Below, one piece after another: positions 2,156-3,421 of a stretch of DNA of 5,847 nt (position 1 is its first letter; every line of letters begins with the position of its first letter). The DNA lies in IMG/VR virus record IMGVR_UViG_2700989164_000009, one strand, 5' to 3'. A program made the position numbers and the translations under genes. The notes under the pieces are model-generated. The model had not been told where the DNA came from and searched no databases. It worked only from the letters and a program-made list of their open reading frames with translations. The stretch comes from a virus. Lineage: Duplodnaviria > Heunggongvirae > Uroviricota > Caudoviricetes.

Positions 2156-3421
2156 ATGAAGATATTCATAATGCGCAATTGGCACAAGATATCAATTTTT
2201 ATACTTGCATTTACTTTGATTTGGCTTAGGCGCATTGACATTTTGACAAATGCCCAGTTTTGGGCTGAGGATGCAGTTTTTTGGTATAAAGATGCATACG
2301 AACAAGGTTTTTTCAGTTCACTCATAACCCCAAGAAATGGTTATTTTCAAACAGTATCAACACTCATTGTTGGTGCGACGACATTTATTAATCCAATTTA
2401 CGCACCATTATTATCAAACTTTTTTGGAATAATAATTAGAGCTATAATTATATGGTTCTTATTTACCGATAGATTTAAATTCCTAAGCACCACATCAAAA
2501 ATCTTCATCTCTGTATATTTAATTTGCATGCCCGGGCTTGATGAAGTCCAAGCCAATATAACAAATGCTCACTGGTATTTATCATTGTATGTTGCAATGA
2601 TAATAATATCTGAAGAATCCAAGTCAAAATTATGGAAAGCACATGATTTATTTTTTATAGTATTATCTGGATTGAGCGGTCCATTTATTATATTCATAAT
2701 TGCATCATCTGTTTTTAAATATTTACACTTATCAAAAGGAGTAATAAGCATAAGAGGTTTATACTTATTTTATACTCGACTGCCATATTTGGCAATGATC
2801 TTGTGTGGGCTGATACAGGCAACATCAATAATTCTTACATTTAATGGAACAAGATCACATGCTCCATTAGGATTCAGTTTTGATGTTATGTCATCTATAA
2901 TATCATCTAATGTATTTCTTTTTTCATTTGTCCCTTGGAATATCGCTAATGCTGGATGGGATAATCACCTTTTATCGTACACACTATCAACTTTAGTAAT
3001 TACATTATGTGTTTTCATTTATATTAAAGGAAATTGGCAAATGAAAGTGTTTGCCACCCTTCCAATACTTATTGTCGCATTTTCTATGGCAAAACCTCAA
3101 CTGGCAGATTCTGTTCCTCAACTGCCAACACTTGCAACCGGAAACGGGTCAAGGTATTTTGTAAATATTCATATTGCAATTTTTTCATTAATATGCGTTT
3201 GTTTGTTTCAATGCATAAAGAATAAAACCTTAAAAATATTCTTTAAAATCTATGTTTCAGTCATCCTTATTGCAATGATAAAATTAAACTTTTTTATAAC
3301 CCCTCTTCCTGACATGAACTGGTCTCAAGGAGCAGAATTAATAAATAAAGCAAAACATGGAGAAGCCGTCTCATTTACAGTGCTCCCTCCATGGTTAACT
3401 CTTGATTTAATAAAAAAATAA
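2156..3421 (+). CDS. Type-specific O-antigen modifying transferase (third gene of the gtr operon, GtrC-like polytopic membrane protein); specificity unknown
   Basis: 421 aa, highly hydrophobic multipass protein directly downstream of gtrB. AGGA at 2145-2148 sits 7 nt before the ATG. Markedly AT-rich (about 30% GC by eye) against roughly 45-50% in flanking genes, as is typical of variable gtr type genes. I cannot assign it to a named serotype gene from memory. Confidence 0.75.
   Translation: MKIFIMRNWHKISIFILAFTLIWLRRIDILTNAQFWAEDAVFWYKDAYEQGFFSSLITPRNGYFQTVSTLIVGATTFINPIYAPLLSNFFGIIIRAIIIWFLFTDRFKFLSTTSKIFISVYLICMPGLDEVQANITNAHWYLSLYVAMIIISEESKSKLWKAHDLFFIVLSGLSGPFIIFIIASSVFKYLHLSKGVISIRGLYLFYTRLPYLAMILCGLIQATSIILTFNGTRSHAPLGFSFDVMSSIISSNVFLFSFVPWNIANAGWDNHLLSYTLSTLVITLCVFIYIKGNWQMKVFATLPILIVAFSMAKPQLADSVPQLPTLATGNGSRYFVNIHIAIFSLICVCLFQCIKNKTLKIFFKIYVSVILIAMIKLNFFITPLPDMNWSQGAELINKAKHGEAVSFTVLPPWLTLDLIKK

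Follow-up and report, generated by a model that had tools for sequence, protein, structure and literature searches.

The stretch of DNA that we analysed (5,847 nucleotides, referred to below as the window) carries a three-gene gtr operon and a convergent tailspike gene, set among pieces of prophage and insertion sequence DNA. Its features are as follows (coordinates, strand where there is one, and what the feature is):

1-68: terminal bases of IS600 (IS3 family); multicopy matches in E. coli are annotated as IS600 transposase ends
69-517, plus strand: 3' fragment of a phage integrase gene (int), its last ~150 codons; Pfam Phage_integrase, profile positions 57-171 only
532-577: attP core of 46 bp, lying after the int fragment and before gtrA; it matches the annotated SfI attP core exactly
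867-1229, plus strand: gtrA, a small membrane protein of 120 aa taken to flip Und-P-glucose; Pfam PF04138 GtrA_DPMS_TM, E 2.6e-13
1226-2143, plus strand: gtrB, a bactoprenol (Und-P) glucosyltransferase of 305 aa, GT2; PF00535 Glycos_transf_2, E 1.2e-30
2156-3421, plus strand: gtrX, the serotype-specific O-antigen glucosyltransferase of SfX; ATG start, TAA stop, 421 aa
3452-3479: G+C-rich hairpin between gtrX and the tailspike gene; 11-bp stem with 8 G-C pairs
3488-5204, minus strand: gene for a P22-type tailspike (head-binding domain at the N-terminus), with a +1 frameshift; Pfam Head_binding, E 3e-63
5262-5798, plus strand: HNH endonuclease ORF (HNH_3 and a weak AP2 match in Pfam; PHROG 99)
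5783-5847: left end of a multicopy IS3-family element; thousands of multicopy matches

The reading frames of gtrA, gtrB and gtrX are all full-length. The start of gtrB overlaps the stop of gtrA by 4 nt, and gtrX lies directly 3' of gtrB on the same strand. GtrA is identical to the GtrA of SfV and SfI at 108 of its 120 residues, and GtrB to the corresponding proteins at 291-292 of 305. Gene order and the Pfam matches bear out the first-pass annotation in its view that the third gene is the type-specific member of a gtrA-gtrB-gtr(type) lysogenic-conversion operon.

It is the nucleotide sequence of this third gene that tells us which type it is. In a megablast comparison with a phage collection, the ORF at 2156-3421 matched a single record, L05001.1, at 100% over 1266 nt. 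The record is entitled "Bacteriophage X glucosyl transferase gene, complete cds" and its organism is Shigella phage SfX. When the whole window is used as the query, positions 2150-3877 are 100% identical in nucleotide sequence and span the entire 1730-bp record, so that the identity covers the full gtrX and 456 bases downstream. Among the protein family libraries, PHROG 19534 ('glucosyltransferase', E 5e-49) gave the only match; in scans of Pfam-A and NCBIfam no family exceeded the gathering threshold. The exact 421-aa protein is found in 1795 index blocks of public assemblies. At the eight places that we examined, gtrB stands directly upstream of it every time and gtrA is also there in seven; downstream, six have an intact 570-aa tailspike gene of the Head_binding type, and the other two have a truncated ORF only.

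We conclude, with a probability of about 0.97, that the gene is gtrX, the type-specific glucosyltransferase gene of the S. flexneri serotype-converting phage SfX, and that it lies in an IS-bounded prophage remnant. Nothing that we found contradicts the identification of GtrX, which is made by sequence comparison. The gene is already known and has been characterised since the 1990s. The reference gtrX (L05001.1 / AAA71895.1; Verma and co-workers 1993; Guan, Bastin and Verma 1999) has the same position in the operon and the same convergent tailspike. As far as the gene itself is concerned, the two differ only in the annotation of the start, whereas the window copy sits in an IS-bounded remnant and not in an inducible phage.

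The difference in start deserves a comment. In the 1993 record, L05001.1, the coding sequence begins at an in-frame ATG corresponding to position 2171 of the window, giving 416 aa, and this second ATG is also used by a protein cluster of 452 members. We favour the ATG at 2156 (421 aa), because it is preceded at a distance of 7 nt by an AGGA Shine-Dalgarno sequence (2145-2148) and because GtrX homologues of 59-70% identity share both the length of 421 aa and the aligned start position. The longer form is used in the annotation of E. coli PapM-32-1 as well.

That strain, a commensal from a baboon in The Gambia, has a gtrX copy of 98.9% nucleotide identity (NZ_CP049204.1, 3158401-3162734), annotated as a glucosyl transferase. 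There the order is gtrA-gtrB-gtrX-tailspike, with an intact related tailspike, within a P22-like prophage located beside bioA-ybhB and not at thrW. This shows that gtrX is not confined to Shigella and also travels on a phage that integrates elsewhere.

What the operon would do can be outlined from the established Gtr pathway. GtrB, a GT2 enzyme at the cytoplasmic face, would transfer glucose from UDP-glucose to undecaprenyl phosphate; GtrA would aid the passage of Und-P-glucose to the periplasmic face; and GtrX would move the glucose from Und-P-glucose onto one specific rhamnose (Rha III) of the growing O-antigen repeat. The linkage formed by GtrX is alpha-1,3, and the acceptor called 'rhamnose I' in the older numbering of the Verma laboratory is Rha III in the current one. 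The product would be group antigen 7,8, with serotype changes such as Y to X and 2a to 2b. The background to this three-component model is given in PMC3259042. The experimental record on gtrX itself is considerable. Bacteria of serotype Y become serotype X on lysogeny by SfX, gtrX being among the characterised conversion genes (PMC3851460). According to the summary of Guan et al. 1999 in PMC5364150, a gtrX mutant shows zero conversion, and gtrA and gtrB mutants show partial conversion. In strains expressing gtrI, gtrX and oacA together, NMR found Rha III and GlcNAc to be glucosylated (PMC9243986). The gene is part of routine molecular serotyping schemes (PMC10132075). For the copy in the window, the formation of group antigen 7,8 would be expected by carrying over this literature on the identical gene.

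Whether the window copy still acts on the O-antigen depends on the state of the DNA around it. SfX is represented in the phage collection only by the 1730-bp L05001.1, and the tailspike, int and HNH genes were therefore compared with chromosomal copies. Similarity to the int genes of SfI, SfII and SfV begins at base 69, upstream of which IS600 cuts the gene. At the other end, an IS at 5783 replaces the last codons of the HNH ORF; an IS3-family transposase with a programmed frameshift adjoins this element end, and the element is IS2-like. The complete genome CP020339.1 is identical to the window over positions 1-5782 and diverges from it exactly at 5783, lacking that IS insertion. The HNH gene, which is divergent from the tailspike gene, occurs in only part of the gtrX loci; L090 and L095 do without it, and there a gene for an Arc/Mnt-type repressor comes directly next. 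In appearance the HNH gene is a homing-endonuclease gene inserted as a mobile element.

The gtr operon adjoins the phage attP core (532-577) and the int fragment (69-517). This SfI-type core we take to match the 3' end of thrW, a tRNA-Thr gene. The adjacency of int and gtrA could be read as the free-phage (attP) arrangement, but we rejected this as the only reading, since the identical int-attP-gtrA arrangement is also seen in a complete chromosome, CP020339.1, where an IS and a MASE2-GGDEF gene (from its position, yaiC) are its neighbours. The junction may instead have been left behind when prophages integrated in tandem at thrW, which we consider more likely than a free phage. The module is thus placed in a decaying, IS-bounded prophage remnant that has kept its conversion operon intact.

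In such surroundings gtrX might itself be a silent relic, intact in appearance and no longer contributing to the O-antigen. With int truncated by IS600, the tailspike gene frameshifted and the HNH gene clipped by an IS, the suggestion is a natural one, and the literature describes strains in which gtrX or gtrB has been inactivated by point mutations or IS insertion. Yet the three gtr frames are full-length here, and the gtrX sequence does not differ from that of the functional reference. The region from the int fragment to gtrB (69-2115) aligns with SfI at 94.5% identity over ~1,900 of 2,047 bases, in two pieces, and in this alignment no IS or other large insertion is seen in the 518-866 region upstream of gtrA. 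Furthermore, intact conversion genes in decayed prophages are the usual state of affairs in S. flexneri (SHI-O islands). Taken with these points, a silent gtrX seems very improbable, and we infer that the gtr operon is expressed in the source strain. Two further searches bear on its regulation. A sigma-70 scan returned fewer promoter-like sites than shuffled controls did, with none convincing upstream of gtrA, and is uninformative on expression. When the Salmonella-style Dam/OxyR phase-variation signature was sought in 518-866, GATC was seen only at 704 and 809.

The stop of gtrX (3419-3421, plus strand) faces the stop of the minus-strand tailspike ORF (3488-3490), and the hairpin at 3452-3479 lies between them. 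Its folding energy is -25.2 kcal/mol on one strand (z -5.6) and -25.1 kcal/mol on the other (z -5.9), and none of 200 shuffles folds as well; the U-tracts that follow it are only moderate on both strands. It is probably a bidirectional intrinsic terminator. In SfV, a rho-independent terminator is annotated at the equivalent place after gtrV. The first-pass annotation had described gtrX as convergent with the tailspike across a shared terminator, and this description agrees with the stops at 3421 and 3488 and the stem at 3452-3479, the U-tracts being moderate.

The tailspike gene reads as two ORFs, 4050-5249 and 3488-4090, with its true start at 5204; PHROG 17420 matches both halves. The frameshift is due to a single additional base in a homopolymer, which on the plus strand is C8 at 4069-4076 (G8 on the coding strand). 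In the E. coli copy and in seven other chromosomal copies from S. flexneri, the run has 7 bases. Six of these S. flexneri copies and that of E. coli are called as intact 570-aa proteins, and L091, the remaining one, owes its truncation to something else. The complete genome CP020339.1 shares the 8-base run, which thus recurs in an independent assembly. The run could be a real pseudogene mutation, a tract prone to slippage or a sequencing error that recurs at the homopolymer. A weaker possibility is that the G7/G8 tract serves as a slipped-strand switch rather than reflecting simple decay. It had been proposed that the pairing of gtrX with the tailspike links receptor modification to receptor recognition. 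For the ancestral phage this is reasonable; in the window copy, where the extra G breaks the tailspike frame, the link is not operative.

The base composition of gtrX sets it apart from its neighbours. Its GC content is 31.8%, compared with 43.3% for gtrA, 41.5% for gtrB, 44-46% for the tailspike ORFs and 42.6% for the rest of the window (gtrX versus the rest, chi-square 47.5, p = 5.6e-12); the GC content of the host is ~50.9% (PMC3851460). At third codon positions the values are 25.6% for gtrX, 45.5% for gtrA and 36.3% for gtrB. In sliding windows of 300 nt the GC content drops to 27-30% within gtrX, so that the profile is not uniform, and the earlier statement that the gene is sharply lower in GC than gtrA, gtrB and the tailspike holds on computation. 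The same is seen in other converting phages: five gtr(type) genes (gtrX, gtrV, gtrI, gtrII and gtrIV) have ~32-33% GC, against about 42-45% for their gtrA and gtrB neighbours.

The low GC content suggests that gtrX was acquired from an AT-rich source. One could argue that it is instead a by-product of encoding a very hydrophobic membrane protein rich in Ile, Phe, Leu and Lys, with no foreign origin involved. GtrX is indeed very hydrophobic (GRAVY 0.73), and GC is low at codon positions 1 and 2 too (34% and 36%). But the biggest deficit falls on the synonymous third positions, and gtrA, with 45.5% GC there, likewise encodes a membrane protein; the amino acid composition therefore does not explain the AT-richness of gtrX. 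Family members in high-GC hosts have 55-69% GC, which means that it is the mobile enterobacterial copies that are AT-rich and that the fold does not demand this. Ten further gammaproteobacterial loci have a gtrB-like gene nearby (adjacent in most), and in these the GC content of the gtrC-like gene falls short of that of the gtrB-like gene by 4-24 points, the smallest gap being 40.4% versus 44.3%. We give the by-product explanation very little weight, and prefer acquisition from an AT-rich source.

GtrX has a GRAVY of +0.73 and at least 9 separate hydrophobic segments, and an AlphaFold2 model of it is all-helical (mean pLDDT 91.2, pTM 0.90), residues 1-6 being the sole low-confidence part. All this is in line with the earlier description of a 421-aa polytopic membrane protein. 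A review (PMC2629481) states that nine transmembrane helices have been experimentally shown for GtrII, GtrV and GtrX. A profile search of PDB sequences with GtrX returned nothing at E <= 1. A structure-based search with the model matched ALG12 (16.8), Pmt4 (14.3), Pmt2 (14.1) and AglB (13.6), followed by ArnT (13.4), STT3B (12.8), AftA (12.6) and PglB (11.6). From these matches we predict with confidence that GtrX is a compact membrane enzyme of the GT-C fold. Its sequence identity to GT-C enzymes (ArnT, ALG12/ALG9/ALG3, Pmt1/2/4, PglB/AglB/STT3, AftA/AftB) is 7-11%. It is also small, at 421 aa, and the large soluble domain that ArnT, PglB and the Pmts carry on the periplasmic or lumenal side is missing from it; its C-terminus bears only a short beta-hairpin (404-419).

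The matched GT-C enzymes use a donor linked to polyprenyl phosphate or polyprenyl diphosphate on the non-cytoplasmic face of the membrane. That GtrX would use a polyprenyl-phosphate-linked donor is supported indirectly, through the co-operonic GtrB and GtrA and the literature model. Catalytic acidic residues of GT-C enzymes are carried in the first extracytoplasmic loop. In GtrX, residues W36, E38, D39 and W43 (the FWAED motif) do not vary across 33-34 homologues, the most distant of which have 23% identity, and within the family W36-x-E38-D39 is accompanied by N134, T136, N137, D164, S174-G-P-F177 and R333-Y334. E38 and D39 lie just past TM1 (helix 9-25 in the model), which puts them in the first extracytoplasmic loop. 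By analogy, E38-D39 is a candidate for the catalytic or donor-binding acidic pair.

How GtrX relates to the other type-specific proteins can be stated briefly. Its relative in SfV, GtrV (NP_599055.1, 417 aa), is 35% identical over ~410 residues (E 2e-72); gtrV occupies the same operon position and has a GC content of ~33%. GtrV and GtrX reportedly tolerate an exchange of their N-terminal periplasmic loops (PMC3259042). Unlike GtrX, GtrV glucosylates Rha II and gives the type V antigen, and the identity between the two proteins is too low for a shared specificity. GtrI, GtrII and GtrIV showed no detectable similarity to GtrX by BLASTP (best E > 1), and the Shigella gtr(type) proteins should therefore not be handled as one sequence family. 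These proteins (and GtrIc) have the same role as GtrX and the same place after conserved gtrA and gtrB genes; they differ from it in acceptor sugar and linkage, and their lengths are 437-506 aa. For GtrIV and GtrIc, the experimentally derived topology is reported as differing.

Since no Pfam or NCBIfam family matches GtrX, and since no similarity to GtrI, GtrII or GtrIV could be detected, so that it looks like an orphan from its sequence alone, one might take the gene for a gtr(type) of new specificity giving a novel O-antigen modification, but the DNA is 100% identical to the reference gtrX in L05001.1 and gtrX is a standard serotyping target whose antigenic output is known, which refutes the suggestion. 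The first-pass annotation had left the specificity unassigned and had allowed for an uncharacterised modification; it had itself named near-identity to a characterised Gtr type as the result that would overturn this, and the match to L05001.1 is such a result. The gene is gtrX, and the window holds no uncharacterised O-antigen modification.

It is established that gtrX sets group antigen 7,8 in serotypes X, Xv, 1d, 2b, 3a and 5b, and the gene is relevant to Shigella epidemiology, vaccine design and molecular serotyping. To this our analysis makes modest additions, namely the prediction of a GT-C fold, the candidate E38-D39 pair, support for the 421-aa start and the observation of an intact operon in a decaying prophage.

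Relatives of GtrX are widespread. A pattern scan of species-representative genomes gave 216 confirmed relatives, the best 80 of which come from Enterobacterales, Halomonadaceae, Xanthomonadaceae, cyanobacteria, Acidobacteria and Patescibacteria. One relative is on a 2-kb contig binned as Methanosarcina, and this may be a binning artefact. Among the best 80, a GtrB-like gene lies within 5 kb in only 25 (many of these being weak partial matches) and a GtrA gene in only seven; adjacent and closely related GtrB genes are found mainly in Enterobacterales. A speculative suggestion, which we put forward as an unlikely but not fanciful one, is that GtrX and GtrV belong to a compact (~420 aa) GT-C family that has no Pfam or NCBIfam model and extends far beyond phage gtr operons. 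If this is true, the family would be an old cellular one that modifies glycans, and the enterobacterial phages would have recruited AT-rich copies from it.
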